Numbered from the stretch's first letter, positions 3,291 to 20,000 are shown. The stretch: 20,000 bases of DNA from an uncultured virus (IMG/VR IMGVR_UViG_3300027782_003801) (IMGVR_UViG_3300027782_003801); one strand, 5' to 3'. Numbers and translations: made by a program. The notes: generated by a model from the sequence alone, not told the origin.

Positions 3291-3291
3291 T

Positions 3292-3894: not shown

Positions 3895-4070
3895 ATATAT
3901 TGGAACTATATGAAAGATATAATAAAGTGTATGAAATTGAATTAAGAGAAGTTGCAACTCCATATCATTTACAACTTATGAAAGAGATTGATATGTTAGA
4001 GAAGTTAACAATAGATGAGTTTAAAGAAAAATTAAATAACATAGATTTTAAAAAGAAATGGGGAAATTAA
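3891..4070 (+). CDS. Small hypothetical protein, 59 aa (not in ORF track)
   Basis: MNILELYERYNKVYEIELRE...KKWGN; ATGA overlap upstream, short overlap downstream. Confidence 0.65.
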   Translation: MNILELYERYNKVYEIELREVATPYHLQLMKEIDMLEKLTIDEFKEKLNNIDFKKKWGN

Positions 4071-5501: not shown

Positions 5502-5505
5502 ATAC

Positions 5506-5513
5506 CATAAATA
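5506..5513 (-). promoter_or_regulatory. Putative phage (late-type) promoter TATTTATG
   Basis: TATTTATR exactly 4 nt before the ATG, as at 9240 and 14706. Confidence 0.45.
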
Positions 5514-5548
5514 TGGTATTATTTAAGTTACTAACATCCAAAATCTGT

Positions 5549-5579
5549 TTTGGAATACCAAATATTATATGTATATTTA
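5549..5579 (+). promoter_or_regulatory. Bacteroidota-type promoter (one mismatch)
   Basis: TTTG 5549-5552, N19, TATATTTA 5572-5579, ATG 5585. Confidence 0.55.
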
Positions 5580-5584
5580 ATCTT

Positions 5585-6037
5585 ATGGGACTCTCAACAT
5601 TTAGATTTTTCAGGGGTATACTTCGTAAAGCGAGAGTAGTTCAATTAAGACATAGATTGACAAGAACACCAATTGCACACATACCAGTTCCCCCACACAC
5701 AGCAACGATATCTGAATATCGTAGAGCGTTTATTAATGGATGGAGATCCTGTGAGTTCGGAAGGAACATATACGACTGCCCACATTCATCATACGACCTG
5801 GTTGAAATACAATTAAAAAGGGAATGGGAATTTGGATTCACAGAATGTTTTAACACAAGACAAGAGGATTTTGTTGAGATTGACACAACAATTACTCAAA
5901 CAGATGAACAATGTTATCTAAATGGATGGGAACGAGCACAACAAGGACGTCCATTAAATGAAAACCCACATACATACGGGTCACACCAATTTAATATGTG
6001 GTATGTTGGGTGGAATGACTTTGTGGATAACCATTAG
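5585..6037 (+). CDS. Protein with two tandem Rmf/CrpP-like modules; FRFFRG tag
   Basis: Start revised to 5585. AFINGW...GRNIYDCPH...EWEFGF and YLNGW...GRPLNENPH...WYVGW match the Rmf pattern GYxAG...CPY...WxxGW. Confidence 0.65.
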   Translation: MGLSTFRFFRGILRKARVVQLRHRLTRTPIAHIPVPPHTATISEYRRAFINGWRSCEFGRNIYDCPHSSYDLVEIQLKREWEFGFTECFNTRQEDFVEIDTTITQTDEQCYLNGWERAQQGRPLNENPHTYGSHQFNMWYVGWNDFVDNH

Positions 6038-6065
6038 AATATTTCGTATATCCAAACTAATATCT

Positions 6066-6073
6066 TATATTTG
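6066..6073 (+). promoter_or_regulatory. Bacteroidota -7 box TATATTTG
   Basis: 4 nt upstream of ATG 6078; imperfect -33 (TTCG) 19 nt upstream. Confidence 0.6.
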
Positions 6074-6077
6074 TATC

Positions 6078-6536
6078 ATGACCGACGCACAAATAGTAAT
6101 ATCAATTTTATCTGGTATAATATTTTTTTTATATCTCGTTAACAATTTAATATCACTTTCTAATGTTGAATTGTATATGAAAAAATATAATGAATTACAA
6201 CGTGGTGTGTATAAGTATGAACCAAATCCAAGTCTTCAATCACATTATTTTTATTTATACAGTTACGATATTAATACCGTTACATTCACTAAAACTAATG
6301 TCTACATTTTATTCTTTCTTGATGGTGATATAAAACTAACAGAAAACAATTATATACATAAATGGCAAATATGGTGGTCAATACCAACTTGGTATCATTA
6401 TAGAAAACTTCATAAGTTAAAAGATGAGTTAATAGTAAATTATGAAAGAGGACTTGATTTTAGACAGATTTATGATAGAGCTGTAGAATTAGAAAGGAAA
6501 AAAAATAAGTTAGAATTTAAATTTTTGCGGGGATGA
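6078..6536 (+). CDS. Membrane-anchored hypothetical protein ending in LEFKFLRG
   Basis: Start revised to MTDAQ at 6078; N-terminal TM; C-terminal FKFL tag. Confidence 0.7.
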   Translation: MTDAQIVISILSGIIFFLYLVNNLISLSNVELYMKKYNELQRGVYKYEPNPSLQSHYFYLYSYDINTVTFTKTNVYILFFLDGDIKLTENNYIHKWQIWWSIPTWYHYRKLHKLKDELIVNYERGLDFRQIYDRAVELERKKNKLEFKFLRG

Positions 6537-7048
6537 TAAAACCATTCAAACTACTTAATGGGTATGTCTATGATGATGAGTATACATTACCAGTACGAAC
6601 AGATCCACCATTTGGTATATCACATCGTCATTGGAATATGTTGCCACAGGATTTGAGAGGTGGAACGCTAATACATATGGAAATATACATTGAGGGGTGG
6701 GAAGCTGGTCGCAATAATATCACCATCAATCCATATGAAGGTATTATCAATGACCCTATGGTTAGTGAATGGATTGAGTTGTGGAATAGAGGACATCTAA
6801 GGTGGTCTGATAGAACAGGACAAAATTTTAGAAATGTAAATCCCAACCCACCAATAGATGAAACATATCCTGAATTCTATAACACAGATGAATTTGTATT
6901 CTTTGACGTGACGCCAGTTGTGTATGATTCTGAATCTTATGTTCCATATAAATTCATGTTGTTTAGACATATTGAAGATGGGAACACAGTACAAGGAAGT
7001 AGAATAACCCCCGAACACCCAATGTGGAATTTTCCTGATATAATTTAA
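6533..7048 (+). CDS. Hypothetical protein with MIKPFKLL tag and Rmf-like module
   Basis: YIEGWEAG...NPY...LWNRG; ATGA overlap. Confidence 0.65.
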   Translation: MIKPFKLLNGYVYDDEYTLPVRTDPPFGISHRHWNMLPQDLRGGTLIHMEIYIEGWEAGRNNITINPYEGIINDPMVSEWIELWNRGHLRWSDRTGQNFRNVNPNPPIDETYPEFYNTDEFVFFDVTPVVYDSESYVPYKFMLFRHIEDGNTVQGSRITPEHPMWNFPDII

Positions 7049-7061
7049 AAAACAAAATAAT

Positions 7062-7226
7062 ATGAGATTAAACGTAGAATTACTTGCAATTGATTTTTAC
7101 AGAGTAGGAAGAAGTTGGATTTCTTTTTTAGAGATTAATTATGGTCACCCATTATTTTATTTAGAATGGGGACAAGGTATGAAAATACAAATCAGTTTTT
7201 TATTTGGACTAATTAAAAATTATTAA
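7062..7226 (+). CDS. Small hypothetical protein, 54 aa (not in ORF track)
   Basis: MRLNVELLAIDFYRVGRSW...; A-rich leader; ends 1 nt before the next ATG. Confidence 0.6.
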   Translation: MRLNVELLAIDFYRVGRSWISFLEINYGHPLFYLEWGQGMKIQISFLFGLIKNY

Positions 7227-7227
7227 T

Positions 7228-7461
7228 ATGAAATTTGAAGAAGCGGAAGAAAAATCTTTAACCGTAAAATGGGAAATCGGAACTTGCTCGCAAGGAGAAA
7301 GGTGTTGGTGTAGAACGATTAAACCTATTGAACCTATACTTTTTGATGATGGAGATAGTCAAGATGAATATTGGATAGTTGGGTCTGGCGAGTTACATAA
7401 AAATATTGCGGAGTATTTTGTTGAACTCCATAATAAAAATATTGAAAACAAAATTAAATAA
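7228..7461 (+). CDS. Hypothetical protein with C-x5-CWC motif
   Basis: ORF in a contiguous + strand operon. Confidence 0.7.
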   Translation: MKFEEAEEKSLTVKWEIGTCSQGERCWCRTIKPIEPILFDDGDSQDEYWIVGSGELHKNIAEYFVELHNKNIENKIK

Positions 7462-7462
7462 T

Positions 7463-7642
7463 ATGAAATTTAGAAAAACACTCACAGATAAACGTCTTGA
7501 AGAATTGTCTGATAAGGTAAGAAGAGGAACTCCAATCTTAATGAGTGAGGCAATTGAGGTGGTGGAATATCAAGAGATGTTAAAGAAGAATAAACTACCT
7601 TTCACAGATAGAATACTTAATTTCTTTAAAATAAAACAATAA
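7463..7642 (+). CDS. Small hypothetical protein
   Basis: Start revised to MKFRKT at 7463, directly after the upstream stop. Confidence 0.65.
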   Translation: MKFRKTLTDKRLEELSDKVRRGTPILMSEAIEVVEYQEMLKKNKLPFTDRILNFFKIKQ

Positions 7643-7647
7643 AGATT

Positions 7648-7875
7648 ATGAAAACATTTAAGTTCCTCTCAAAGAAACAAGTTCCTATACCAAATAGATA
7701 TAGTAGTTTAAGTCCTGAGGATAGAAACATATACACAAAAGGATATTATGATGCGTTTGATTGTTATAATCATAGTCGTTCGTTAGAGTCACCATACAAT
7801 CCACTTGTGGAAGAATATGAGTATGAATTATGGAGAGAGGGAGTTACGATGTATGAACGAAATAATAATGTATAA
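7648..7875 (+). CDS. Small protein with MKTFKFL tag and Rmf-like module
   Basis: YTKGYYDA...SPY...LWREG. Confidence 0.65.
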   Translation: MKTFKFLSKKQVPIPNRYSSLSPEDRNIYTKGYYDAFDCYNHSRSLESPYNPLVEEYEYELWREGVTMYERNNNV

Positions 7876-8273
7876 TGATAAAGGATTTCAAATTCTTTAG
7901 ATCTAACATAACAAGGGTTAATTGGCAACTAACCGGTTTATTAGATGATGCAACAAATGTTCCATTATTGATTGGTGTATTGGACATCACATACAAATAT
8001 ATTCAGGATAATAATCTAATGGATAATGATAGGGTTAATAATATGTTGATTATTATTATGACTAAATTATACAGAGACAAATATAATTCTTATAGTGATT
8101 ATGATATTAGAGGTAAGATTGATGAGGTTATGATTCATATGGATAGTGTCACAATAAGAAGATATATACAAGAACTTGCAGCGGGTGCTTGGACTAGTAT
8201 TGATGTTGAAGCGGAGATTAATCATATTATTTATGAAAAATGTAAATGGGAAGAACATGATCACGGATTTTAA
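7875..8273 (+). CDS. Hypothetical protein with MIKDFKFF tag
   Basis: TAATG overlap with the upstream gene; 132 aa. Confidence 0.7.
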   Translation: MIKDFKFFRSNITRVNWQLTGLLDDATNVPLLIGVLDITYKYIQDNNLMDNDRVNNMLIIIMTKLYRDKYNSYSDYDIRGKIDEVMIHMDSVTIRRYIQELAAGAWTSIDVEAEINHIIYEKCKWEEHDHGF

Positions 8274-8649
8274 ATTTTTATCGGGGGTGAAATCCATGTT
8301 GGATATGTATGGTAGAGAAATCAATCCAAATCATTATCAAACAATCAGTTTAACCGGCAATCTTCGTTTTCTAAAAGAATACCATAGAAGATTGGATTGT
8401 TTTTATATGTCACATTATAATATGTTTAATGATAGACATCCATTGTATAATCAATCATTAGAATTATATGATAGAACGGTTGGATTTATTAATGGAGGTC
8501 ATATAACAACCCATGAAGAGATAAGGAGATTTGTTCATATCGCTTATTCAGATATGGTCTATGGAGTATTTGAACCGTGGGAAATGGGTGGAGCAACAAA
8601 TCAGGAGATATTAGTTGATACATATAACTTTATAAACCCAAGACGATGA
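8257..8649 (+). CDS. Hypothetical protein with MITDFKFL tag
   Basis: Start revised to 8257 from the shared N-terminal tag and minimal overlap. Confidence 0.7.
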   Translation: MITDFKFLSGVKSMLDMYGREINPNHYQTISLTGNLRFLKEYHRRLDCFYMSHYNMFNDRHPLYNQSLELYDRTVGFINGGHITTHEEIRRFVHIAYSDMVYGVFEPWEMGGATNQEILVDTYNFINPRR

Positions 8650-8972
8650 AGGACTTCAAATTTCTCACCAAGAACAATACCATAAACTTTAACGGACAAA
8701 TGTCCATTGAGGCACTTAGATATTTCAATGATTATGTCAATAATGTAATTAGATATGAAATCTCAACACCAACCGCAACATATAGGATGGTGGATTACAC
8801 TTATGGTGACGGTAATATTGTGGCAGGAACTATCAACGCACATCCATCAGGTGTATCCAATGTAATGGTCACCTATAGTATAAGGAACGGGGAGATTACG
8901 GGACACACAATACATTTAGATTACTGGAATACGGCGGGACAGTTAGTAAACGCATTAAGAGAGACACAATAA
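8646..8972 (+). CDS. Hypothetical protein with MKDFKFL tag
   Basis: ATGA overlap; 108 aa. Confidence 0.7.
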   Translation: MKDFKFLTKNNTINFNGQMSIEALRYFNDYVNNVIRYEISTPTATYRMVDYTYGDGNIVAGTINAHPSGVSNVMVTYSIRNGEITGHTIHLDYWNTAGQLVNALRETQ

Positions 8973-8984
8973 AGACCCATACCA

Positions 8985-9229
8985 CTGTGAATGGGGATTC
9001 CGGCGTACGAAAACAATGATGGAGATAACCAGCACTAATCATAAATAACCATCTTAATGCACGAGAAAACCGGCATTAGAGATTCACTTTACATAATATT
9101 ACCAATATACTTTACATTATATGTAAAAACATATACCAAAATTAAAAACAGACGTAAAATGAATTTCACTATATCCAAATACATATAATTCAAAAGCGAC
9201 TAGATGTCCTCAGTCAGATAATATTATAA
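8985..9229. repeat. Duplicated intergenic element, copy A (candidate structured ncRNA)
   Basis: TTCCGGCGTACGAAAACAAT 8998-9017 and AAAGCGACTAGATGTCCTCAGTCAGATA 9193-9220 are identical to 12382-12401 and 12456-12483. Confidence 0.85.
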
Positions 9230-9239
9230 ACTAATAGGA

Positions 9240-9247
9240 TATTTATA
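9240..9247 (+). promoter_or_regulatory. Putative phage late-type promoter TATTTATA
   Basis: 4 nt before the ATG of the MKFLDIINE protein; same geometry at 14706 and 5506. Confidence 0.5.
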
Positions 9248-9251
9248 TACA

Positions 9252-10775
9252 ATGAAGTTTTTAGACATTATAAACGAATCCGAAGAAGAAAGGTTATTAA
9301 AGAGAGGAAAGACAATCTTTAAAGCATTTAAGGAGGGAACAATCACACGTACTGATGGAGTATCGTTTAGTTATGTATTAGATAACAATGTGGAGATGAT
9401 GGTAAGAAACGGGGAATTAGAACTATACGGATCTGTTTCCAAGATAGTAGAAAAAACCTATTGTCCAATCAATGAAAGGTATATGACGGAGTTAATAGAG
9501 AATAGATTTCGTAAGTTCTATATTACCACAGATTTAAGACCTCCAAGTAAAGACAACATACATAAGTTCCAAGGAAAGAAACCGTGGGAAGAGGACTTAA
9601 ATGATTTAGTGTACTTAAATGAATCCAACGAGTATAAACTAATTAGAAAGGGGAAACTTATATTCAAGGCGTTAAGAAAGGGAACCATAGGGTCTGAGGA
9701 TGAACCTAATAAACCTATGTTTACTTATGAATTATCCGATGATATGTCTGTAAGTTTACATGAAGGTGAAATTATCATTTTTACAGATGAGATTAAGGTT
9801 GTGGAACTGAATGAACCATGTGTAAGAATGAGCACGGATTTAATGGCACGTAAAATTAGTAATAGGTTTAAGCAATTTAAAGTTACATTGTCACATCCAC
9901 CAATACATCCTTTTAATGTGGATAGTTATTATGATAGACGTAAGAAAGAAGAATTAAACGAGAATTTGGTCCATATAATAACGGATGAAGATAAAAAAAA
10001 GGTTAAACTCGTTCATAAAGCAATAAGTTCGGGTGTTGTTAAGGTAAATGACGTTAGATATAGATATGAACTTCCTAAGAACTACCAAATGAGTCCAGCG
10101 AATAATAAAATTATACGTATTAGATTTGAGTTTTATAATGGGGATTTAATTGGTCCCAACCGTGGGGAGAAGTTACCATTAAAGTTATGGAGAATAGAAG
10201 AGGGTAAGGATATATATATCAATGGATTATTAGATAATACGGATGTATCAGATATATGTTATGGTGAACACTATCATCAGAAAGAAACGACACAGGAGTA
10301 TATGATGGTTAAAAATGCGGTTCGTAGGAGATATAATAACTTTAACATTTCATTAGATGTGTCCCCCAAAGATAGAACATTAAAGGTATTTAATAATAAT
10401 CCAGTAAATGAACAGGATGATGTGGTTATTACAGATGATTATATCTACCCAACCAAAGAACAGAAGAAAAGGGCAAAGATATTCTATCATGCGTTTAAGA
10501 CGGGGAAGTTCACAATAGAAGACGATGGTGGAACGTACAAATATGTTCTTCCTGATGAGTATTATGTAAGTGTGGCGGGTGATGGTGTATTAAATATTGT
10601 TTTAACCATGAATCCCCAACAAAAAATGAAGATGTATTTTGTACATAAGGATCATGAGACGGGAGAAACAATAGAAAAAGACATAGACACTTCAAAAAGA
10701 ACTTACCTACATCAATGGATGAAGGATAAGATAGAGAATAAATTCAAACAATTCCAAATTAATTTTATATTTTAA
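9252..10775 (+). CDS. Four-repeat putative virion (internal head) polyprotein
   Basis: Four copies of (I/L/V)NE...K-x-K-x-I-F-x-A-x-x-x-G...Y-x-L...N-R/K-F-x-x-F. Confidence 0.75.
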   Translation: MKFLDIINESEEERLLKRGKTIFKAFKEGTITRTDGVSFSYVLDNNVEMMVRNGELELYGSVSKIVEKTYCPINERYMTELIENRFRKFYITTDLRPPSKDNIHKFQGKKPWEEDLNDLVYLNESNEYKLIRKGKLIFKALRKGTIGSEDEPNKPMFTYELSDDMSVSLHEGEIIIFTDEIKVVELNEPCVRMSTDLMARKISNRFKQFKVTLSHPPIHPFNVDSYYDRRKKEELNENLVHIITDEDKKKVKLVHKAISSGVVKVNDVRYRYELPKNYQMSPANNKIIRIRFEFYNGDLIGPNRGEKLPLKLWRIEEGKDIYINGLLDNTDVSDICYGEHYHQKETTQEYMMVKNAVRRRYNNFNISLDVSPKDRTLKVFNNNPVNEQDDVVITDDYIYPTKEQKKRAKIFYHAFKTGKFTIEDDGGTYKYVLPDEYYVSVAGDGVLNIVLTMNPQQKMKMYFVHKDHETGETIEKDIDTSKRTYLHQWMKDKIENKFKQFQINFIF

Positions 10776-11135
10776 ATGAAACTATTAGATATACTAAATG
10801 AGGATGCTGAGGTGGATGTCCCAAAGGAGAAAAAGAGGGTTAAAACCGTATTCAGGGCGTTAAGGTCAGGGGTTATGTTTGTCCCATTCTTGGGATATAA
10901 AATTAAATATGAACTTAATAACGACTACCAATTAAGTGTGGGGATAGGTAAAGGTCATAGTGACACCATTCTGTTTATTCCATCTGATGACAAGACACCA
11001 AAGATAAAGTTATATGAGATTGGGTCCGATGGGGTGGAAAGATATTTCAGTGTAAATGGATATGACGCCATATATCAAGCCATGTGGCAAATGATAAGTC
11101 AAAGGTTCAAAAATTTCAAAATACATCTAAGATAA
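10776..11135 (+). CDS. Single-domain paralog of the 9252 repeat unit
   Basis: MKLLDILNE...KKRVKTVFRALRSG...KYEL...ISQRFKNFKI. Confidence 0.8.
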   Translation: MKLLDILNEDAEVDVPKEKKRVKTVFRALRSGVMFVPFLGYKIKYELNNDYQLSVGIGKGHSDTILFIPSDDKTPKIKLYEIGSDGVERYFSVNGYDAIYQAMWQMISQRFKNFKIHLR

Positions 11136-11159
11136 TTAGGATATTCCAATTCGTACTAG

Positions 11160-11167
11160 TATATTTG
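11160..11167 (+). promoter_or_regulatory. Bacteroidota -7 box TATATTTG
   Basis: 4 nt upstream of ATG 11172; TTAG 20 nt upstream. Confidence 0.6.
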
Positions 11168-11171
11168 TGGT

Positions 11172-11417
11172 ATGAAAATCCCAATTCAACTAACATACAA
11201 ATACTTCAGTGAGACCATAACCATTAAGAAGAAGGTGGATAGTCTTCATATAGGAGATACCATGGAGATGTATAAAGGTATTATTGTCCCCATATATGGT
11301 CAGGAGAACTACGAGAGGGTTATAATAACACTTGCTCAAAGGATAATGGAACAAAGGAGAAAGAAGGAACCCAAAACACTAATCAAAAGGATTGTGGATA
11401 AAATATTGTATTATTGA
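11172..11417 (+). CDS. Hypothetical protein
   Basis: 81 aa ORF behind a promoter box. Confidence 0.7.
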   Translation: MKIPIQLTYKYFSETITIKKKVDSLHIGDTMEMYKGIIVPIYGQENYERVIITLAQRIMEQRRKKEPKTLIKRIVDKILYY

Positions 11418-11450
11418 TAATATAATGAAAATATTGTATAATTCGGAGAT

Positions 11451-12359
11451 ATGAAGATAACAAGTTTTAATATAAAGGTGAATAAGGATTCCAAACTATT
11501 CATTGGAATAGGGGATAGTTTCTGTGAGGGTTCTGGAGCTCAACCAATTGAGATATGGGAGAAGTATGGTTGGGACAGATGGAAAATGTCCTTATCGGAT
11601 GAGGGGAGTGAATGGGCAATAAAGAACTCATTTGTGAATAAGATATGTGAGAGACATCTAAAGGACTTTACACCTGTTAATTTGGGTAGTGGGGGAAAGG
11701 GAAATAGATATGCCATAAGGGAACTATTCTTAAACCCAACAATTGATTTTAAGATTGCCAAGGAGAAGATTGTGGTATTTGCAATGTCAGGGATTGAAAG
11801 GTTGGACTTCTCCAATTCCATTGTAAGTGATAATAATGGTGACCATACAACAACGATATGGTCATATAATGAAGAAAATGTAATGAAAGGGTATTCGGGT
11901 TTATTGAGACCTGACGGGGAGAGTATAAACAATATAAGGTTTGCAATATCTGAATTTATGTTTGATATGTTTATGTTGACAAACTGGTGTGAGTTGAATA
12001 ATGCTAAGTTACTATTGTTTAGTGGGTTTTCTAAAGAATATAACAGGGAACATTTTAACAGGTTATTGATTCAGGATAATGGTGGGCTTGATATTGATGT
12101 GGTTATGGAGAATACAAGATTATTGCTTGATAGAATGCCATGGGATAAGATTATTAGACCCATGGGATATGAATGTGTCACCGATATGTTATTACACTTG
12201 GAAGGTAGGGATGATTTAAATGGACATCTTGGTGGAATAAATTACGAGACCATAGGAGAGAATCATTATTTAACCAAGTGTCAACATCCATCATATAAAG
12301 GACACGAATTACTATCGGACATCATATATGAGAAGATTATAGAATGGGGTTACTTATAA
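11451..12359 (+). CDS. SGNH/GDSL hydrolase-like protein
   Basis: IGDSFCEG, NLGSGGKGN, QHPSYKGH. Confidence 0.7.
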   Translation: MKITSFNIKVNKDSKLFIGIGDSFCEGSGAQPIEIWEKYGWDRWKMSLSDEGSEWAIKNSFVNKICERHLKDFTPVNLGSGGKGNRYAIRELFLNPTIDFKIAKEKIVVFAMSGIERLDFSNSIVSDNNGDHTTTIWSYNEENVMKGYSGLLRPDGESINNIRFAISEFMFDMFMLTNWCELNNAKLLLFSGFSKEYNREHFNRLLIQDNGGLDIDVVMENTRLLLDRMPWDKIIRPMGYECVTDMLLHLEGRDDLNGHLGGINYETIGENHYLTKCQHPSYKGHELLSDIIYEKIIEWGYL

Positions 12360-12368
12360 CTCACAACA

Positions 12369-12494
12369 CCGAGAACGGGGGTTCCGGCGTACGAAAACAA
12401 TCCCAAAACTGGCGTCAGAATGTTAGATACTATATCCCAATTAGGTATAATCTCTAAAGCGACTAGATGTCCTCAGTCAGATATATTATTATAA
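12369..12494. repeat. Duplicated intergenic element, copy B
   Basis: Same two conserved blocks as copy A, with a 54-nt rather than 175-nt linker. Confidence 0.85.
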
Positions 12495-12539
12495 TTCGTG
12501 GGATATCTAATGAATGTGGATAACTTATACAAGAAATAG

Positions 12540-12571
12540 TTTGGAATATAAAGAATATAATCGTATATTTG
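12540..12571 (+). promoter_or_regulatory. Consensus Bacteroidota promoter
   Basis: TTTG 12540-12543, N20, TATATTTG 12564-12571. Confidence 0.8.
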
Positions 12572-12593
12572 TATTATTAAACAATAAAAACAT

Positions 12594-12953
12594 ATGGAAC
12601 AAGTATTATTAGAAAAAGACAATAAGAAAATCGGGTTGAAAGAGTTAGATGTTAAATTCTGTGGACATAGAGTTACAGGTTCAACAGGAAGAGAAACATT
12701 CCTAATCACATTATCTATTATCGGAGGTTTAGTCGGGGGATATTCTAAACTTAGTGAGTATTCAGAAGATATCTCAGAGGATAAAGAAACCTTCCATATA
12801 AGAAACCCTAAGAGTTATGACCAACAATTCATAAGAGAAATGGGAGATTATTATGTATGGTTTAACTACTCAAATGAACAAAAGAGATATAGATTACAAA
12901 GTCTTGTTGAGAGATTAAATCTACAGGATAAATTCTACATTACATTGGATTAG
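12594..12953 (+). CDS. Hypothetical protein (monocistronic)
   Basis: Own promoter and terminator; A-rich leader. Confidence 0.75.
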   Translation: MEQVLLEKDNKKIGLKELDVKFCGHRVTGSTGRETFLITLSIIGGLVGGYSKLSEYSEDISEDKETFHIRNPKSYDQQFIREMGDYYVWFNYSNEQKRYRLQSLVERLNLQDKFYITLD

Positions 12954-12956
12954 TAT

Positions 12957-12981
12957 AAGGGGACCTAAAGGTCCCTTTTTT
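12957..12981 (+). terminator. Rho-independent terminator
   Basis: AAGGGGACC-TAAA-GGTCCCTTT running into a T-tract, just after the TAG stop. Confidence 0.85.
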
Positions 12982-13861
12982 ATTCCTCCTTGGTAAGGGA
13001 CTTATAGACCTGGTACAAGGAACCTATTATGGAGATAATCATAAGGATAAAGATGTATATCATAGGGTATTATTTGGATATAAAGATAGGATAAACTTCC
13101 GAGATTGTCCACGTTTTAGTTCCGACTTTGGACCTGTTTTATCCCACTATGTCTCCGACATCTGTGTCGGGAACATCCTGTTTACCCCCCGACGAGGACC
13201 TTTAGGTCCGAGATAATTGTCCTGTTTAAGGTACATTTTTCCCACCTTAATACCCCCGAAAATTACCCCTAATTTATCCCCGATATTGATACTAATATCC
13301 CCACTTTATTCACCTTGATCTGTCGGGATCCATTTAGGGGATGGAATTCCCACTTTTAGCGTATATTTATTGATACCGTATATAATATCGGTAATTTGGG
13401 GAGAAAGTGGGGAAAAGTGGTAGTATGTGGGGATTGACCCCTGACCGAATCAAGGACCATATCCATAAAAATTTGAATATATAACTGTATTACGGGGTCC
13501 TTCGGACCCCTTCAGGGGTGACACAATGTCCATTTATGTTATGTATATGAATAACCCATCATACGTAATACAGTGGTTAGTAATACATCCCATTCCATTT
13601 AACATAATGTACGTTATAGGTTCACAAGTAATACACATCTTTATCCACACCCATCCCCTGAAGGGACGACCGTAGGATCGTCCCGTAATACACTTGCCAG
13701 ACAATATCGGTAGATTTAATGTTTAACCATTTAAGTGTAATACTTACACAAAACTTGCCAAACAATATTGTCCGTCATACATCCGTTCGTCTACGGTAAT
13801 ACATAAAACCTGAAGGGGACCCATAGGGTCCCCGAACAATTAAAATATGTGCTTGTGTGTA
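12982..13861. other. Large repeat/hairpin-rich non-coding region at the convergent strand switch (origin/terminus/pac candidate)
   Basis: No credible ORF; several repeat families (TCCGA..CCTGTTT, CCCAC/GTGG, GTAATAC, GGG-hairpin-CCCTTCAGG); DnaA box at 13641. Confidence 0.6.
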
Positions 13862-14701
13862 TTACGCGGAGAAGTCTATACCGAAGTGTTTAAACCTATT
13901 TTTCAACCATTCTTTAAAGTCATCTTTTTCATCGTAATTAAGAGGACATGTATTACTTGTGATTTTAACCCCGTCAATATAGGCGTGACCTGGACTATAA
14001 CTTATTTCAAAATCGGGACTAATAATCTTATCCCTTTTATTATAGTTTTTATTCATTTGGTGTACGGTAATACTAGGTTGGTTAAACTTACCGTAGTCAT
14101 ACGTGTGACCTTTCCAAGTTCCTTTACCCAAAGCCGTGTAGATTGTCTTACACTTCTTAACTAATTTGGTCATTGTGGTCGAGTAGTCTTCTGAGAACGT
14201 CGGTAATTGTTCTGGCAATAATAGGTATAAGTTTTCATTTTGAAATAATTCATATAATGAGTTTGGTCTTTCTATCTTCACATTATAGACATTATTGTCC
14301 ATATAGTCTTTTAAGAATAATATCCCCTCCATAAGGGTTATTGTCACCCTTTCAATGTGGATTCTAAAATCCGTTCTATCTTTTAACACATCATAATAGT
14401 GATCAAGAAATTCTTCCTTGGACATGTTTCTTGCCAAACAAATTGTGTTGATCAGCTCGTCCCCCGCTATTTTAATTAAATCTGGTGGTATGATTGGATT
14501 AACATGATCAGGATTATATGTAACATACACTTCAAATTCTCTTTTTGAAACGAAACGATATGTAATATAACCTGTACCGCTGGTAAACTTAAGTTTCTTC
14601 AAATACCGTAAATCATCAGATACCTTAAGTAGAAGGTTCGTAAGCTCAACCTTCTTTAGGTCACTCCCTGCTTGTTCTGATATAATGTCCATAATCTTCA
14701 T
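13862..14701 (-). CDS. Putative virion protein (MKIMDIISEQ) with a C-terminal copy of the 9252 repeat domain
   Basis: Start revised to 14701; KKCKTIYTALGKG...LKNRFKHFGI. Confidence 0.75.
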   Translation of the reverse strand: MKIMDIISEQAGSDLKKVELTNLLLKVSDDLRYLKKLKFTSGTGYITYRFVSKREFEVYVTYNPDHVNPIIPPDLIKIAGDELINTICLARNMSKEEFLDHYYDVLKDRTDFRIHIERVTITLMEGILFLKDYMDNNVYNVKIERPNSLYELFQNENLYLLLPEQLPTFSEDYSTTMTKLVKKCKTIYTALGKGTWKGHTYDYGKFNQPSITVHQMNKNYNKRDKIISPDFEISYSPGHAYIDGVKITSNTCPLNYDEKDDFKEWLKNRFKHFGIDFSA

Positions 14702-14705
14702 GTTA

Positions 14706-14713
14706 TATAAATA
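14706..14713 (-). promoter_or_regulatory. Putative phage late-type promoter TATTTATA
   Basis: 4 nt before ATG 14701. Confidence 0.5.
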
Positions 14714-14764
14714 GTTCTTTGCCAAACAATATTCGAGTCGGTCTTCCTGATCAGTGTCGTCTTT

Positions 14765-14797
14765 AAACAATAAACCCCCCACAATAGTGGAGGGTCT
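14765..14797 (-). terminator. Rho-independent terminator of the 58-aa gene
   Basis: Minus strand AGACCCTCCAC-TATT-GTGGGGGGTTT then ATTGTTT; the mismatches are G-U pairs only on the minus strand. Confidence 0.7.
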
Positions 14798-14821
14798 ACT
14801 ATCGTTCTTATAATCTACAGG

Positions 14822-14998
14822 TTATGCAGATAATAAAGTATTTCTGTAAGTAATCGCTGTTCTCTTGTTAGAGAAGTTCTTACTGTGTTTTGTTCCTTCT
14901 ACAGATACACGAACACGGTAGCTGTTACCGTCGAAGTATACATTGTTAGATACAGGAACATAAGTTGTCTTGGTAGAACGAGATTTGGTTGTTTTCAT
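14822..14998 (-). CDS. 58-aa basic AP2/integrase-arm-type DNA-binding domain protein (not in ORF track)
   Basis: MKTTKSRSTKTTYVPVSNNVYFDGNSYRVRVSVEGTKHSKNFSNKRTAITYRNTLLSA; beta3-alpha pattern; downstream terminator; TCT/CGT/AAC/TAC/TTC codons. Confidence 0.7.
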   Translation of the reverse strand: MKTTKSRSTKTTYVPVSNNVYFDGNSYRVRVSVEGTKHSKNFSNKRTAITYRNTLLSA

Positions 14999-15126
14999 TT
15001 TTACTGAATTTTAATTTAACATTATTGTTTATAAAATATAAACCATTAATTCGGTAAAAAAAAATAAATGGCAACTTATTTTTCGTTTTGTCAGAACTGG
15101 TGTTGCCAAACAACATTCACAGTGGA

Positions 15127-15267
15127 TCAGGACTCGAACTTCTTGTCAATCCATTTATACCACTCCTCACCGTACTTCTGTTCCATATGGTTGAAGTACC
15201 TGTAATGTTTTCTCTCGTTGTAGAGGAAATACACGAAGTAATAATCTATGTACCACTCCAACTTCAT
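15127..15267 (-). CDS. Small aromatic-rich hypothetical protein, 46 aa (not in ORF track)
   Basis: MKLEWYIDYYFVYFLYNERKHYRYFNHMEQKYGEEWYKWIDKKFES; starts 1 nt after the upstream stop. Confidence 0.65.
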   Translation of the reverse strand: MKLEWYIDYYFVYFLYNERKHYRYFNHMEQKYGEEWYKWIDKKFES

Positions 15268-15268
15268 T

Positions 15269-15457
15269 TTAAATCTTTTCATGGTATTCTATTTCAATGT
15301 TAACACTGTCTAAGTTGAATTCGTCGTAGAACTTCTCCAAGATATCAATCTTAGCATCTGCTGAAATGTATAGGATTAGTCCCATATCCTTCTTTCGTTG
15401 AATCTTAGAGATTTGGTCCGTAACCCATAGTTTAACCATTTGGTCATTTAGTTTCAT
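15269..15457 (-). CDS. Small hypothetical protein
   Basis: Start revised to MKLNDQ at 15457. Confidence 0.65.
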   Translation of the reverse strand: MKLNDQMVKLWVTDQISKIQRKKDMGLILYISADAKIDILEKFYDEFNLDSVNIEIEYHEKI

Positions 15458-15776
15458 CTTGTAGTATTTTATATTGTTTATCACCAATAGTATCCAAGAT
15501 ATATGCCACCTCCACTATATCTTCCAAGTCATATGTGGATATGTCATCGAACTCATCACCATATGGTGTTACACCTGTCAAGTACTGTCCATCAGTCATT
15601 GTCCTTACAAGATACGGTACCTTAGTCATAGTTGCATCGTACTCATTATCCTCACTGATGTAAACATTAAATGGGTGGGTAAACTCTATGGTTTCCCCGA
15701 GTTTGAATAGATTCTCTATCTCATTACAGAACTTGGTCTTCAGGTTCTTAACTTCTTCCCTTGAGTTGTAGTTCAT
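15444..15776 (-). CDS. Acidic hypothetical protein
   Basis: Member of the minus-strand operon; ATGA overlap. Confidence 0.7.
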   Translation of the reverse strand: MNYNSREEVKNLKTKFCNEIENLFKLGETIEFTHPFNVYISEDNEYDATMTKVPYLVRTMTDGQYLTGVTPYGDEFDDISTYDLEDIVEVAYILDTIGDKQYKILQDETK

Positions 15777-16336
15777 ATTAATTCATTTAAAAATTTATTT
15801 GGAAATCTTTCCATACCAAAATCTATTGCAATTCCTACAATCTTTCCCTTGTGTTTTGCCACAAGACATCTGTATCCACCATCACCAATACCTGATGACG
15901 ATACCACACCTGTGTCATACATACCCCACGACTCGGTGGATAATGTGAATTGGCACATCTTCTCGTACCACTCATCACCATCCCTATCTTTCACACCTAA
16001 GGTAAATGGTCTTCCATCATATGTCTTATCAGGTGTTGTAATACTTGAGGCAATGTCGTCATTCTTGAAAGAAGACATGCTGAAGATTCCTGCTTGACCT
16101 GAATCCACCCCAACTTGACCAGGGTAATTTCTCCAAGATAATGTATCCTCCACATAATCCTCGTGGACAGTAAGTAATACAGAACACCTGTTCCCCCAAT
16201 TAGGGTCCTCAGTTTTTCTCACGGTAGTTATGTAACCACCAGGTAATACATCCTTTAGTTTTACTTGACACCAAGTTTCGTCCGAGTAGCAAGGGTCACT
16301 GACCATCACATCACTCTCAAGTGTAATACGGTTCAT
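15773..16336 (-). CDS. DUF4241-like phage protein
   Basis: VSDPCY, VGVDSGQAGIF, SSGIGDGGY motifs. Confidence 0.65.
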   Translation of the reverse strand: MNRITLESDVMVSDPCYSDETWCQVKLKDVLPGGYITTVRKTEDPNWGNRCSVLLTVHEDYVEDTLSWRNYPGQVGVDSGQAGIFSMSSFKNDDIASSITTPDKTYDGRPFTLGVKDRDGDEWYEKMCQFTLSTESWGMYDTGVVSSSGIGDGGYRCLVAKHKGKIVGIAIDFGMERFPNKFLNELI

Positions 16337-16387
16337 AGTTTATAAGTTTAGGGTTTAAAGTTATGACATAGTTATGATATCACAAAA

Positions 16388-16888
16388 TTATTTGGAATAT
16401 ATTCTTTTATAGTTATTAACATTTTCTACAATCTCTGTTAACATTACAGCGGATACCTTGTCATACGCCCTCAACATAAACAATTGATTGCCAGACAACA
16501 TTGCGAGATCTGCTGTCCCATCTTGGAAGTATAAATCTATTGGGTCTATTAGAACTCTAACTTCATTGATATCATTATCGGACCTAAAGAAAGGACAACG
16601 ACCATACACATATGTATCTCTTACAGTGTAGAGTTTGATAGTGTCCTTCATGTTAGTTAAGGCTCTAATCTGCATAATGATTACTTCTAATTCAGACAAC
16701 TGTTGAAAGTCCACCTTGTGTTTAGAAACTTTATTACTGTACTCTGTTACAAAATCTGCCAGACAATATCCACCTGGCTGATCAGATCCGTGACTCCTTG
16801 TTATGAACTGGTCGTAAGTACTTCTTTCTTTAGAGGTACCTACAATGTTTACGAATACTCCTTCCGTGGTTTTATTTAACCTACCCAT
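16388..16888 (-). CDS. Hypothetical protein
   Basis: 166 aa; TAATG overlap; carries two embedded 14-bp motifs. Confidence 0.7.
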   Translation of the reverse strand: MGRLNKTTEGVFVNIVGTSKERSTYDQFITRSHGSDQPGGYCLADFVTEYSNKVSKHKVDFQQLSELEVIIMQIRALTNMKDTIKLYTVRDTYVYGRCPFFRSDNDINEVRVLIDPIDLYFQDGTADLAMLSGNQLFMLRAYDKVSAVMLTEIVENVNNYKRIYSK

Positions 16889-17103
16889 TATAGTATATTT
16901 AAATTGTTAATAAATTTGCCAAACAATATCGACCAGGATGATCTCTGTGGTTGTCCAAGAAAAACTCTGGTGTTAAACACATTGCCTCCATAATATGGAG
17001 TTGGTTTGTTGTAGTGACTTGCCACACCAAATTGGCGGAACCATTCGTCCTGAGGAGGTTGTTTTTCAGGATATGTTGTCTTACATACTCTTTCTTTAGT
17101 CAT
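16888..17103 (-). CDS. Small hypothetical protein
   Basis: 71 aa, overlapping both neighbours. Confidence 0.65.
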   Translation of the reverse strand: MTKERVCKTTYPEKQPPQDEWFRQFGVASHYNKPTPYYGGNVFNTRVFLGQPQRSSWSILFGKFINNLNIL

Positions 17104-17752
17104 TTAATTCTTCTTTAAGTTGTTTAATAATTGTTTCTTTATCTTCATCCGTTACGAAACCGAAGTTCTCGTTTACATATTCTACTATTTTAACTTCATC
17201 TATTGTTTCATCCTCATCTTCTTCATCATCAGATGTTATTTCATCACGAGCTGAATCAATCATAGATTCAAGCTCCGAATTCCAAAACAACTCCTTGTCC
17301 AACAAATAAATGCCCTCCAAATAAGGATACTCACTATCATCAACCATTGTGAATCCATCTTCATCACGATAGATTTTGGTTTCACCACTGAACCCTATAC
17401 CACCTTCACTATAGAAGATGTAAGCTTCAATACCATCATACTGCTTAACCAAGTTGGTTAGAAATTCTATGGGAGGACTCCAAGCTGTATCAGGATATAA
17501 TCTGATTTCAGTTTCATCATAATCCATATTACAATCACTATATGACACATCCCATTTAGTCCCGAACCAACTTACATTGGTATTGTACCAATCCTTATCA
17601 TAATCGGCTTTAGTCATATGGTCAGGATATCCAATAAGGGATTGGAATACTCTGTCTTCACCATCTTTAGTATTTTCAATAACCCTTACTAAAGTAGCTA
17701 TAATTTTTTCATCTCCATTAATTCTAATGGAATTGTTACACCAGTTTGGCAT
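17096..17752 (-). CDS. DUF1281/YubB ferredoxin-like domain protein
   Basis: MPNWCNN, WY.....FGTKWD, TAWSPP, YSEGG motifs. Confidence 0.75.
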   Translation of the reverse strand: MPNWCNNSIRINGDEKIIATLVRVIENTKDGEDRVFQSLIGYPDHMTKADYDKDWYNTNVSWFGTKWDVSYSDCNMDYDETEIRLYPDTAWSPPIEFLTNLVKQYDGIEAYIFYSEGGIGFSGETKIYRDEDGFTMVDDSEYPYLEGIYLLDKELFWNSELESMIDSARDEITSDDEEDEDETIDEVKIVEYVNENFGFVTDEDKETIIKQLKEELND

Positions 17753-17770
17753 GATATATAATTTAATTGA

Positions 17771-18232
17771 TTACCAAGATGAACGATAGTAAAAAGAAGC
17801 ACCTTTATTATCTTCTTCTAATAAATCTTTAAGTTGAATAATAGTAGATTTAACTTCTTCCCAATAGTATTCGTCAATTTCATCACTACCGAAGAAGAAA
17901 CCCTGTGCTGTTGGCAGTATAGTTTCTGCAGTGTCTTTATTATCATAGACATATGTTAATGTTTCCAATAACATCTTCAGGTCTGATTCATCTACAAAAC
18001 ATTCTTTACAATCATCCACACCCTCTTGTACATTATCGACGAACCATTTGTGAAGAGCATTAAACTTTCTCCACTCCATCACCTGTTCCATAACATAACA
18101 AATTCTGTCAGGTTTAATGTGGTCTAATTTCTTTTTACCTTTCTTAACAGAGATGGTGTGTCTTTCATTATCAGACATCCAATCCCAATTCTTAACATAG
18201 TGTTTCTTGTAGAGATACATATCTAATCCCAT
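17771..18232 (-). CDS. Conserved phage hypothetical protein (MGLDMYL...WRK.N...YYxSSW family)
   Basis: Recognisable motifs MGLDMY, WRKFNALHKWF, LPT..GFFFG, YYRSSW. Confidence 0.75.
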   Translation of the reverse strand: MGLDMYLYKKHYVKNWDWMSDNERHTISVKKGKKKLDHIKPDRICYVMEQVMEWRKFNALHKWFVDNVQEGVDDCKECFVDESDLKMLLETLTYVYDNKDTAETILPTAQGFFFGSDEIDEYYWEEVKSTIIQLKDLLEEDNKGASFYYRSSW

Positions 18233-18251
18233 AGTTGTAAGTTTTAGGATA

Positions 18252-18284
18252 CAAAGATAATGAATATTCTTTTATAACGCCAAA
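18252..18284 (-). promoter_or_regulatory. Consensus Bacteroidota promoter for the minus-strand operon
   Basis: TTTG (18281-18284), N21, TATCTTTG (18252-18259). Confidence 0.8.
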
Positions 18285-18359
18285 TTATTTAAAGCTTTTT
18301 TTATAAAAAAACATGCGCGCAGATCAGGTGGATATTGTTTGGCAAATTCTGTTATTGAT

Positions 18360-18372
18360 TATCAATGAGTTA
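18360..18372 (+). promoter_or_regulatory. IHF-consensus site
   Basis: TATCAA-TGAG-TTA matches WATCAANNNNTTR exactly; lies between inverted 14-bp motifs. Confidence 0.55.
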
Positions 18373-18454
18373 TGTTTTGCCAAACAACATCGTTGCTGCG
18401 CGCAGATCTGCAGCATGCTATGCGAAACAAGTATTACATGCGAAACAACATAGC

Positions 18455-18485
18455 AAAAAAATCCCCCGTACTTCTACGAGGGATT
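18455..18485 (-). terminator. Rho-independent terminator
   Basis: Minus strand ATCCCTCGTA-GAAG-TACGGGGGAT followed by T6. Confidence 0.8.
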
Positions 18486-18512
18486 GAACTAAACTTACTA
18501 ACCCACATCCAT

Positions 18513-18692
18513 TTATTTTTTACAAACTAAATCACTCAATAGTCGAGAACTACCTTTGATTATTATTGTTTCTTTCATTGCTTCGTCAATCGTTGTAATA
18601 CCCTTCTTGTGTAGTTTGAAATCAGTACCATTGTTGGTGTACCAAATTTCATACGTTTTGTTGTTTGAAGACAACTTAATAGTGGTCGTCAT
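18513..18692 (-). CDS. Small hypothetical protein (59 aa)
   Basis: Start revised to MTTTIKL at 18692 (AACTATG context as in neighbours); followed by a terminator. Confidence 0.65.
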   Translation of the reverse strand: MTTTIKLSSNNKTYEIWYTNNGTDFKLHKKGITTIDEAMKETIIIKGSSRLLSDLVCKK

Positions 18693-18808
18693 AGTTTTAC
18701 GGATTTGTTGAAATGCTAAAGTAATACAAAAAACAATACAAACCAACAAATTTATTTTTATTTATTTTTGCCAGACAATATCCGTCAGGGGCCCACAGGT
18801 ATTACACC

Positions 18809-18840
18809 AAATAAAAATGGGTATCATTTCTGATACCCAT
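18809..18840 (-). terminator. Rho-independent terminator
   Basis: Perfect 10-bp stem ATGGGTATCA-GAAA-TGATACCCAT followed by TTTTATTT. Confidence 0.85.
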
Positions 18841-18906
18841 CGTATAACAAACACTCTCCATATAAACACTATATAATATACCGAATATTTTGGATATAAA
18901 CAAATA

Positions 18907-19203
18907 TTACCAACCATCTACTTCATTTGGATTGGTTGAGAGAGTATTATTCAATACTTGTATCATCTCACCCACTTTATCCATATAATAAATCTCGGCT
19001 GTGGGTTCATTACCATTCTCACTTGGTTGTAATACTTCATTTAAACCATCAATTTCTTCCCAACCAATATCCTCCAGGTCCCCTCTGTCATACATTTCTT
19101 TAGCAATCTTGACAGCTTCGTTTAAATCGTTAGCCTTTACCTCAAACTCGGTTTTCATCCATGTTGTTACCTTTTGGTCAAGGCGAAAGTCAAATGTTTT
19201 CAT
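18907..19203 (-). CDS. Hypothetical protein, DpnD/PcfM-like N-terminus
   Basis: EVKANDLNEAVKIA pattern. Confidence 0.6.
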   Translation of the reverse strand: MKTFDFRLDQKVTTWMKTEFEVKANDLNEAVKIAKEMYDRGDLEDIGWEEIDGLNEVLQPSENGNEPTAEIYYMDKVGEMIQVLNNTLSTNPNEVDGW

Positions 19204-19214
19204 ATTGTTTTATT

Positions 19215-19397
19215 TTAAAATTTACCTACGTGTTTTCCCCTATGAGCCCCGTATTTCTTTTCAAATTTCATGATGGCTTCACGAGGCGTGTGCATCCAAT
19301 ACGTCTCCTCGTTCCCTTTTTTATTCCATATATTAATCACCAAACCATCTTGGTTAAAGTGCATAAGTGGAGGTTCTTTTTTCATAACTTTTTTCAT
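19215..19397 (-). CDS. Small hypothetical protein
   Basis: Tightly packed minus-strand operon. Confidence 0.6.
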   Translation of the reverse strand: MKKVMKKEPPLMHFNQDGLVINIWNKKGNEETYWMHTPREAIMKFEKKYGAHRGKHVGKF

Positions 19398-19398
19398 A

Positions 19399-19653
19399 TT
19401 ATCTCCGATTTTTATTTATCTCCACAAGACGTTCCCAACTCCAAGTTATTTTTTTCTTTCGTCTGTTCATCGTCATTATCACAAACACATCTTCTCTATC
19501 ACCAGTACCCACACCTTCCCACCATTTTGACGGAACGATTTCAAGATAGATTTCAATACCATCATTTATTTCTTTATCAGTAAAATTACTATTAAAATAT
19601 TTTACATACTCAAAGAACTCATCTCTTTTCTTTTTTGAAATTTTCTTTTCCAT
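19399..19653 (-). CDS. Small hypothetical protein
   Basis: Tightly packed minus-strand operon. Confidence 0.65.
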   Translation of the reverse strand: MEKKISKKKRDEFFEYVKYFNSNFTDKEINDGIEIYLEIVPSKWWEGVGTGDREDVFVIMTMNRRKKKITWSWERLVEINKNRR

Positions 19654-19656
19654 AAC

Positions 19657-19896
19657 TTAATATTTACTTCTAATACCCCTTCTACGATATAAGTCGTCGT
19701 ACGGGTTAATATTTGGTTTAAGTGATTCATTGATTAATGTAATGTCAGCTTCAGATATTTCATCCACAAACTTCTTATCAAGGTCATCAATGTGTTTGCC
19801 GGACAACTTGTCGTAACCACCCATCTGATATTTGGGGTAGATGATTTTGGTTTCGGTGTCAAGTACAGATGCAACTGATTTTAATTCTACTATCAT
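19657..19896 (-). CDS. Small hypothetical protein
   Basis: Tightly packed minus-strand operon; AACTATG start context. Confidence 0.65.
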   Translation of the reverse strand: MIVELKSVASVLDTETKIIYPKYQMGGYDKLSGKHIDDLDKKFVDEISEADITLINESLKPNINPYDDLYRRRGIRSKY

Positions 19897-19899
19897 AGT

Positions 19900-20000
19900 T
19901 TAAGATTTAGGGAAGTCATCTTCCGTGATTTCTAATATTGTTTCCACATTATAATTCCAACTATCCATATAACCAAATAGGTCTTCATCACTCTCTTTGA
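19900..20000 (-). CDS. 3' end of a hypothetical protein (partial)
   Basis: Open frame ...KESDEDLFGYMDSWNYNVETILEITEDDFPKS* ending 3 nt before the next start. Confidence 0.6.
   Translation of the reverse strand, partial: KESDEDLFGYMDSWNYNVETILEITEDDFPKS

Follow-up and report, generated by a model that had tools for sequence, protein, structure and literature searches.

The window analysed here is a 20,000-nt stretch of DNA from an uncultured virus (IMGVR_UViG_3300027782_003801). On its minus strand, a basic ORF of 58 residues lies between two exact copies of a 14-nt motif. A reading made from the sequence alone proposed that the ORF encodes a stand-alone DNA-binding protein of the AP2/integrase-arm type and that the repeated motif is its cognate site. 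The locus raises the question of whether this small ORF is a gene, what fold its product adopts, and which of the repeated motifs around it, if any, the protein would bind.

The 58-residue protein is encoded by a separate transcription unit

The features of the gene and of its surroundings are listed below. M1 and M2 denote the two repeated motifs of the locus.

14822–14998, minus strand: ORF of 58 residues with an ATG start (ORF list), comprising a short basic tail (residues 1–12) and a predicted β-sheet/helix domain of the AP2/integrase-arm type
14999–15102, minus strand: AT-rich leader of 104 nt, from the upstream M1 copy to the start codon (read from the sequence)
15103–15116, minus strand: upstream M1 copy, reading ATGTTGTTTGGCAA on the gene strand, 10 nt past the stop of the preceding 51-residue ORF
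about 14766–14803, minus strand: hairpin with a T-rich tail, the terminator of the gene (RNA fold)
14719–14732, minus strand: M1 copy past the terminator, 17 nt before the likely ATG (14701) of the next gene (motif scan and ORF list)
13862–14701, minus strand: next gene, about 279 residues when read from an internal ATG, and the final protein gene of the block (ORF list)
12954–13861, minus strand: non-coding end of the block, about 900 nt, with seven M2 copies, two M1 copies and several GC-rich hairpins, where the block meets plus-strand genes
13565–19087, minus strand: motif-filled block of co-oriented small genes, given as the span of 19 gene-strand M2 copies (motif count)

The ORF is a real, functional gene, as the sequence-only reading had claimed. 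It begins with an ATG and has the many homologues described below. C-ending codons make up 11 of its 15 Asn, Tyr, Phe, His, Asp and Ile codons; for 33 other window ORFs together the figure is 440 of 1622 (Fisher p = 2.8e-4), and the share in this gene is the highest among all window ORFs tested. Three of the five Arg codons are CGT (19 of 204 in the other ORFs), and six of the eight Ser codons are TCT. These are the codons that had been taken as a sign of high expression, and the gene is probably highly expressed.

The gene constitutes a separate transcription unit composed of an M1 site, the AT-rich leader, the ORF and the hairpin terminator. The leader contains a TTGCCA half-motif in the opposite orientation and lacks a Shine–Dalgarno-like sequence, as read from the sequence; by eye, the same leader features are present in four relatives (L001, L002, L003 and L008). 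The proposed terminator holds up in RNA folding: the 86-nt stretch 14740–14825 on the minus strand has a predicted energy of −29.7 kcal/mol, with the hairpin and T-rich run at about 14803–14766. This hairpin is not among the sites of a consensus terminator scan. The M1 copy that follows the terminator recurs in the same arrangement in L002, L003 and L007, sometimes as two copies about 46 nt apart.

The gene is covered by contigs of three RNA libraries, which come without transcript ends, strand or level and cannot prove transcription. One contig, from run X22, spans 14768–14995 and lends weak support to the terminator. One RNA-library contig extends upstream beyond M1, so that no transcript start is indicated at M1 by these contigs.

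A second ORF of 56 residues (14946–15116, minus strand), which overlaps the leader, has its start ATG within the M1 copy. The 102-residue protein record P0064 is a gene call from that M1-internal ATG in a relative. Both the ORF and the call are most likely annotation artefacts.

The family is conserved in uncultured freshwater jumbo phages

A search of 5.8 billion proteins with the 58-residue query returns at least 200 homologues at E ≤ 1 (200 of 200 candidates), the closest among the matches listed being 97% identical. Among the 120 matches listed, the homologues are 58–102 residues long and nearly all named hypothetical. A profile run against 1.84 billion representatives of protein clusters, formed at 50% identity, yields 102 matches at E ≤ 0.001. 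Of these, 91 are 48–173 residues long and share the same core. The other 11 are long; nine of them were scanned and proved to be repeat proteins (LapA, Kringle, TSP1, DUF11 and the like) unrelated to the family, and are thus chance matches. None of the 91 short representatives carries a second, catalytic or recombinase domain, in agreement with the proposal of a protein free of catalytic domains.

Conservation is strong within the core. In 85 diverse members, R28 is invariant and Y13, R30 and A48 are nearly so, and an alignment of 24 close members (A1) contains 25 invariant positions. No tryptophan is conserved among the 85 members. Some members (P0139, P0144, P0154, P0163 and P0221, and those of loci L045, L048, L049, L061, L068 and L072) possess N-terminal tails of 30–100 residues rich in Ala, Lys, Pro, Thr and Ser. 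Ala/Lys/Pro-rich tails are a feature of non-specific DNA-coating proteins, and those of the members named resemble the tails of histone H1-like DNA-condensing proteins.

A search of IMG/VR, made with a narrower alignment (A3), identifies 60 loci with relatives at 50–97% identity on contigs of up to 335 kb. No IMG/VR locus was found for the distant members P0162 and P0189. Phages in GenBank show no near DNA match to the window, and at the protein level the sole match is to a Campylobacter phage at E 0.6. At least part of the stretch is contained in at least 24 sequencing runs from 20 studies, all but three of them labelled freshwater or lake water; three of those runs are RNA libraries. The 58-residue family is a very conserved one, belonging to uncultured freshwater jumbo phages of about 300–335 kb.

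The protein is predicted to adopt an AP2/integrase-arm-type fold

The AF2 model of the protein, built with 24 sequences, has a pLDDT of 86 and a pTM of 0.64. It contains β-strands at residues 14–17, 20–22, 27–33 and 36–42, followed by a helix at residues 45–57. R28 and R30 are both located on the third strand. The model reproduces the three-stranded sheet plus helix that had been suggested from the sequence. The predicted fold is a three- to four-stranded antiparallel β-sheet with a C-terminal helix, which, at weak scores, is of the AP2/integrase-arm type.

Comparisons with other structures concur on this fold, all by weak matches (Z below 8, Foldseek E above 1e-3). The top rows of a Foldseek search against the PDB are the arm domains of HPI and P4-like integrases, Toxoplasma mitoribosome AP2-like proteins, lambda Int and AP2 domains, with E from 0.34 up. 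VIA-align, which does not rely on Foldseek, gives Z scores of 5.5 for the PfSIP2 AP2 domain, 4.6 for the GCC-box domain of AtERF1 (2gcc; rmsd 1.9 over 44 residues), 4.4 for the HPI arm domain, 4.2 for TEM1, 4.1 for WRI1 and 3.7 for Tn916 Int, all in the range below 8 where a score may mirror a common arrangement only. The matches among the predicted viral structures of BFVD are headed by HNH endonucleases, NUMOD4 and AP2/ERF proteins, with a best E of 5e-3.

Sequence comparison of the 85 members gives weak links to HNH endonucleases and integrases. The HNH endonuclease family phrog_99 is matched by 16 members (best E 1.3e-5), the integrase family phrog_1 by six (best E 1.7e-3) and the integrase family phrog_11531 by three; additional HNH and integrase PHROGs rank below phrog_99 and phrog_1. 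In a protein atlas, the 58-residue protein lies near clusters in which 12% of members carry Integrase_DNA and 26% carry Arm-DNA-bind_4.

The window protein itself has no match in Pfam or PHROGs at E ≤ 10, including no HNH catalytic or nuclease domain in Pfam, no meaningful match in NCBIfam, and chance matches only in profile searches of PDB sequences. No Pfam AP2 or Arm model occurs among the 25 families listed, of 34, for the 85 members, and in the complete genome of the relative G001 the AP2 model PF00847 finds nothing at E ≤ 1. The AP2/arm-like assignment made earlier is thus upheld by the predicted fold and by weak HNH and integrase PHROG links, but not by the Pfam AP2 model. The protein represents a new stand-alone family with a predicted AP2/arm-type fold that is not Pfam AP2 by sequence.

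The gene lies at the end of a motif-filled block

The small gene is located at the far end of a 6–20 kb block of co-oriented small genes. In the window, it is followed by one more protein gene (13862–14701), which has no family match, and then by the non-coding end of the block. A search of 12500–20000 against Rfam finds no family at E ≤ 1, with one sub-threshold chance match. Two depth bins over 13400–13833 are among the three highest of the RNA library X23. The region 12954–13861 may encode a non-coding RNA, serve as a replication origin or mark an end of the genome.

Two further observations concern the genes of the window. The C-ending share of Asn, Tyr, Phe, His, Asp and Ile codons is mostly 0.35–0.62 in the minus-strand block genes, versus mostly 0.06–0.39 in most plus-strand genes at 145–12359. 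The ORF at 17096–17752 (minus strand) contains DUF1281_C, a ferredoxin-like domain of Api92-like proteins (E 1.7e-6), and is the only window ORF above a Pfam cut-off.

M1 is a lineage-specific motif ahead of the units of the block

M1 is the 14-mer TTGCCARACAAYAT on the plus strand and reads ATRTTGTYTGGCAA on the gene strand. The window contains 14 matches with at most two mismatches, nine of them exact, where 0.93 are expected; a count of 14 was not attained in any of 200 shuffles. Thirteen are on the plus strand, and all 14 lie within 13694–19809, where genes run on the minus strand. Clustering is also seen in relatives: all 12 exact copies of the 335,630-nt genome G001, rated 100% complete, lie at 25,415–37,066, and all 14 exact copies of a 97-kb relative lie within 10.5 kb.

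The position of M1 is related to transcription units. Exact copies occur 75, 144, 27, 151, 104 and 17 nt before the start codons at 18692, 18232, 16888, 16336, 14998 and 14701, respectively, and two further exact copies are in the non-coding end. The exact copies at 14719–14732 and 15103–15116, which had been seen as a bracket around the 58-residue ORF, are indeed present, but the bracket is not specific to this gene: M1 precedes six start codons, is mostly intergenic, and stands ahead of most transcription units of the block. An M1 copy is found within about 35 nt after two predicted terminators of the window, and many copies in relatives are 25–40 nt past a T-run. Across 31 loci, 279 of 478 M1-type copies (58%) are outside ORFs of at least 60 residues, DNA that makes up 25% of the block, a count in which the rows of L028, L037 and L070 hold the complement of M2 by mistake. 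Counted by eye, 27 of 36 loci have an M1 copy in the 300 nt that precede the homologue.

M1 changes between lineages. The word repeated most often around the gene is ATATTGTTTGGCAA in the clade of the window, ATTTAGTTTGGC, GATTTTGTTTGGCAA or ATAATGTTTGGCC in other lineages, and TTTACTGGGG, TTTACTGGAT, AAAACTGGAA or ATGACTGGCC in yet others. The variants share a (C/T)TGG core. Four loci (L022, L027, L031 and L034) have four different M1 motifs and an almost identical protein core, by eye. In L046, L061, L068, L072 and L073, three to seven tandem M1 copies with a spacing of 45–49 nt directly precede the gene. L046 and L035 have M1 in inverted orientation with respect to their genes.

M1 is read here as a promoter or operator element of the block, which probably co-evolves with another factor. 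No sigma-70-like −35/−10 pair is evident around M1, either in a promoter scan or by eye; the scan finds 30 sites versus 30.2 expected. A Bacteroidota-type −7 box, a sigma-54 site and a T7-like promoter were also considered and rejected, as their spacings and conserved positions, compared by eye with consensus sequences, do not fit M1.

Several local arrangements accompany M1. In the window, two M1 copies face each other at 18332–18390, 31 nt apart and flanked by GC-rich palindromes (GCGCGC and AGATCT), and L004 contains three similar inverted pairs with spacers of 23–35 nt. In L046, the interval from a terminator to the small gene contains seven tandem units of 46–48 nt (7590–7900) that each include one inverted M1 copy, and eight M2 copies follow the small gene within 320 nt. 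In the window and in L001–L008, by eye, the 15–25 nt before M1 copies are GC-rich within an AT-rich genome, with frequent short palindromes (GATC, GCGCGC, GCATGC and CTGCAG).

M2 is invariant, enriched in the block and purged from adjoining DNA

M2 is the motif GTATKAC, with the consensus YGTATKACA and no conservation of the flanks among 583 copies. It is the same in all lineages. Its complement, GTAATAC, is a word that the sequence-only reading had already listed. In all 36 loci compared, the gene strand carries more M2 copies than its complement, 5–29 versus 2–12, where 1.4–2.8 are expected per strand. Within 1.5 kb after the stop of the small gene, the 36 loci together contain 220 gene-strand copies. 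The window has 19 copies on the minus strand (13565–19087) and five on the plus strand. The same orientation is kept in L046 and L035, the loci in which M1 is inverted.

The enrichment ends abruptly. Beyond 2 kb past the gene, M2 has no copy on either strand in 209,639 nt from the 36 loci, where about 36 per strand are predicted from base composition. In the window, it is absent from both strands of 1–13486. In G001, 33 of 39 reverse-strand GTATKACA copies are in the 20–40 kb region, and the block is adjoined by a 57,585-nt stretch free of M2 that encodes DNA methylases, glycosyltransferases, sugar-modifying enzymes and GDSL hydrolases. The absence of M2 from both strands elsewhere suggests that a copy matters wherever it is present. 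Inside the block, 64% of M2 copies are within ORFs, which is unusual for the sites of a regulator; the ORF at 15773–16336 (564 nt) alone contains five copies in three reading frames.

No explanation so far covers both the enrichment of M2 in the block and its purge from the adjoining DNA. A Chi-like site was considered, as the orientation of M2 relative to the block end would fit the Chi rule, and was rejected: it leaves the purge from both strands elsewhere unexplained.

The homologues had been expected to be accompanied by local motif arrays. This is the case throughout the jumbo-phage clade, but not for the distant homologue L091/L092, the one distant homologue that could be placed, which has no array nearby. 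From the motif side, IMG/VR contains at least 119 loci with two M2 copies 8–30 nt apart, and none of the 119 retrieved encodes the family; this sample includes no previously identified family locus, is made up chiefly of chance pairs, with in-frame repeats of coding sequence as its dense cases, and carries no weight in either direction. A positive control of the HMM recovered 61 of 62 family loci and missed L009. Protein and motif co-occur within a single related clade, so that their co-occurrence does not amount to independent evidence. M2 clusters at the block end, where the gene is also located, and their adjacency may simply follow from this.

A sequence-specific binder acting on the block is the preferred reading

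From the gene, its conservation and codon bias, the predicted fold and the motif statistics, we tentatively infer DNA binding, the motif bound and its consequence as follows: the protein may be a stand-alone AP2/arm-type DNA binder that acts on the block and has M2 or M1 as its sites. This reading is plausible, though short of probable. The short Lys/Arg/Thr-rich tail would precede the sheet and the C-terminal helix, and the exposed Arg/Lys face of the sheet, with its invariant Tyr-Arg-Val-Arg stretch, would contact duplex DNA. Its specific sites would be one of the two motifs, M2 rather than M1. M2 is favoured because it is as invariant as the protein and because its length suits one small domain. 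Bound protein might mark, organise or switch off the block during infection.

The proposal of a cognate motif is thereby shifted from one motif to the other. The 14-mer changes between lineages with a nearly unchanged protein core (by eye), which argues against it as the cognate site, while GTAATAC, the M2 complement, is conserved and would fit better.

A more speculative form of the preferred reading, rather unlikely as a whole, treats the protein and the invariant 9-mer M2 as a DNA-marking system. An abundant, sequence-specific ‘mini-histone’ would coat a single block of 15–20 kb via co-oriented sites hundreds of base pairs apart, and the site would be purged elsewhere so that only the block is coated. 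The coat could time, protect or position the block, for example if the block enters the cell ahead of all other DNA. A different factor, one that evolves faster, would recognise the lineage-specific M1.

Alternative explanations

A different possibility, somewhat against the odds yet with a real chance of being right, is that the motifs are ordinary promoter or operator signals recognised by the RNA polymerase of the host together with a sigma factor of host or phage origin, and that the protein is a general histone-like DNA coat or a regulator with other targets. The placement of M1 agrees with this: it occurs 17–151 nt before six start codons of the window and often about 30 nt past terminators, 58% of its copies are non-coding in a block that is 25% non-coding, and it turns over between lineages without change of the protein core (by eye). 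The Ala/Lys/Pro-rich tails of some members and the codon bias, which suggests abundance, would likewise suit a general coat. Sigma70-type genes are present in two of the three records searched, G001 and G002. Each has two sigma70-region-2 matches, one above the cut-off and one weak, far from the motif block; those of G001 are at 133,850–134,035 and 214,589–214,795. The proteins are candidates for the factor reading M1. No Rpb2-type RNA polymerase was found in G001 in a Pfam search (RNA_pol_Rpb2_6), though such subunits are so divergent that this does not prove absence, and a search for T7-type polymerase gave no match in G001, with a positive control that matched nowhere either.

Early promoters provide a precedent. 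In jumbo phages that encode RNA polymerases, one report (PMC7598289) describes a highly conserved short early-promoter motif upstream of one class of operons, the early ones, that differs from phage to phage. M1 is like the motifs described there in being a conserved short motif before transcription units, variable between lineages and findable by eye or computer. It is unlike them in that sigma-factor genes, rather than an Rpb2-type polymerase, were found in G001, and in that M1 has stretches that are not AT-rich and an inverted orientation in two lineages.

This inversion, with the orientation of M2 kept, is hard to square with a directional core promoter, and the lack of an evident −35/−10 pair around M1 also counts against promoter signals. 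Five M2 copies in three reading frames of one 564-nt gene are unlike a promoter as well. In addition, the top fold matches of the protein are AP2 and integrase arm domains, and both are sequence-specific DNA binders.

It is doubtful that M1 is instead the cognate site of the protein, with the copies around the gene and the upstream tandem arrays serving as autoregulatory operators within a dispersed array. In several lineages the densest M1 clusters, of three to seven copies, are directly upstream of the gene, and inversion of M1 in two lineages, impossible for a directional core promoter, is possible for a binding site. A (C/T)TGG core is also common to the lineage variants. However, four loci share nearly the same protein core with four different M1 motifs (by eye). 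A 14-mer is also long for one domain of about 45 residues, judging from AP2 and arm-type sites in general, and M1 stands ahead of most units of the block rather than of this gene in particular.

Binding of RNA is improbable. A cut-down dsRBD-like fold would then read M2 in transcripts of the block and control their stability or translation, which would be in line with the strong bias of M2 to the transcribed strand. Seven of the 85 members have weak matches to dsrm (best E 0.023), dsRBD structures appear low in the Foldseek PDB list, and the AP2-like proteins of the Toxoplasma mitoribosome rank high in fold searches. However, the AF2 model lacks the N-terminal helix of a dsRBD (alpha-beta-beta-beta-alpha), and matches to HNH and integrase PHROGs are more frequent and stronger than those to dsrm. 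M2 is missing from both flanking strands, which points to recognition of duplex DNA.

Finally, it is very improbable that the ORF is a functionless vestige, in decay, left from the DNA-binding region of a homing endonuclease or integrase: the weak similarity to DNA-binding domains of such enzymes would be explained, but the 25 positions invariant in A1, the four core residues invariant or nearly so over 85 members, the constant length and position over 60 loci, and the gene's own leader, terminator and codon bias all speak against decay.

Comparison with known systems

The protein resembles the AP2/ERF domain in its predicted sheet packed on a C-terminal helix; AP2 domains are its best structural matches in VIA-align, and phage HNH/AP2 proteins in BFVD. 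A relation to the AP2 domains of phage HNH homing endonucleases is also suggested by the 16 of 85 members that match an HNH-endonuclease PHROG. Small AP2-annotated phage proteins of similar kind appear among the BFVD rows, including a 66-residue protein of Escherichia phage phT4A and a 64-residue ‘putative transcription factor’ of Shigella phage Sf12. Unlike AP2/ERF proteins, the 58-residue family has no Pfam AP2 match and no nuclease domain, possesses a basic or Ala/Lys/Pro-rich N-terminal tail, and is encoded at a constant position where a motif-filled block of jumbo phages ends.

The arm domains of tyrosine integrases (lambda Int, HPI/P4-like Int and Tn916 Int) are similar to the protein by fold matches (3jtz, 3rmp, 2wcc and 1bb8), by weak matches to integrase PHROGs and by atlas neighbours. 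Integrase arm domains read short asymmetric sites in several copies, and M1 and M2 are likewise multi-copy. In contrast to the integrase systems, no recombinase domain is attached here, and the arrays span kilobases and run inside genes rather than in an attachment site.

The proposed mode of action, a small abundant phage binder on one class of transcription units, may be compared with TF1 of phage SPO1. TF1 is an abundant small DNA-binding protein that has preferred sites in early promoter regions and shuts off early transcription. It belongs to the HU family and has a different fold, so that the comparison is an analogy only.

A limited literature search found no functional description of small stand-alone AP2/arm-like phage proteins or of this family, only annotations in passing. 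Short AP2-annotated phage proteins are already known, and the two-motif architecture is the less expected part of the locus. The analysis ties the family, which is abundant in lake metagenomes, to a sharply bounded genome block with two classes of motif. If the protein reads neither motif, the turnover of M1 between lineages, the flips of its orientation and the absence of M2 from neighbouring DNA would still need explaining. If it reads M1 or M2, it would offer a simple in vitro entry into the gene regulation or DNA organisation of uncultured jumbo phages without a cultured host.
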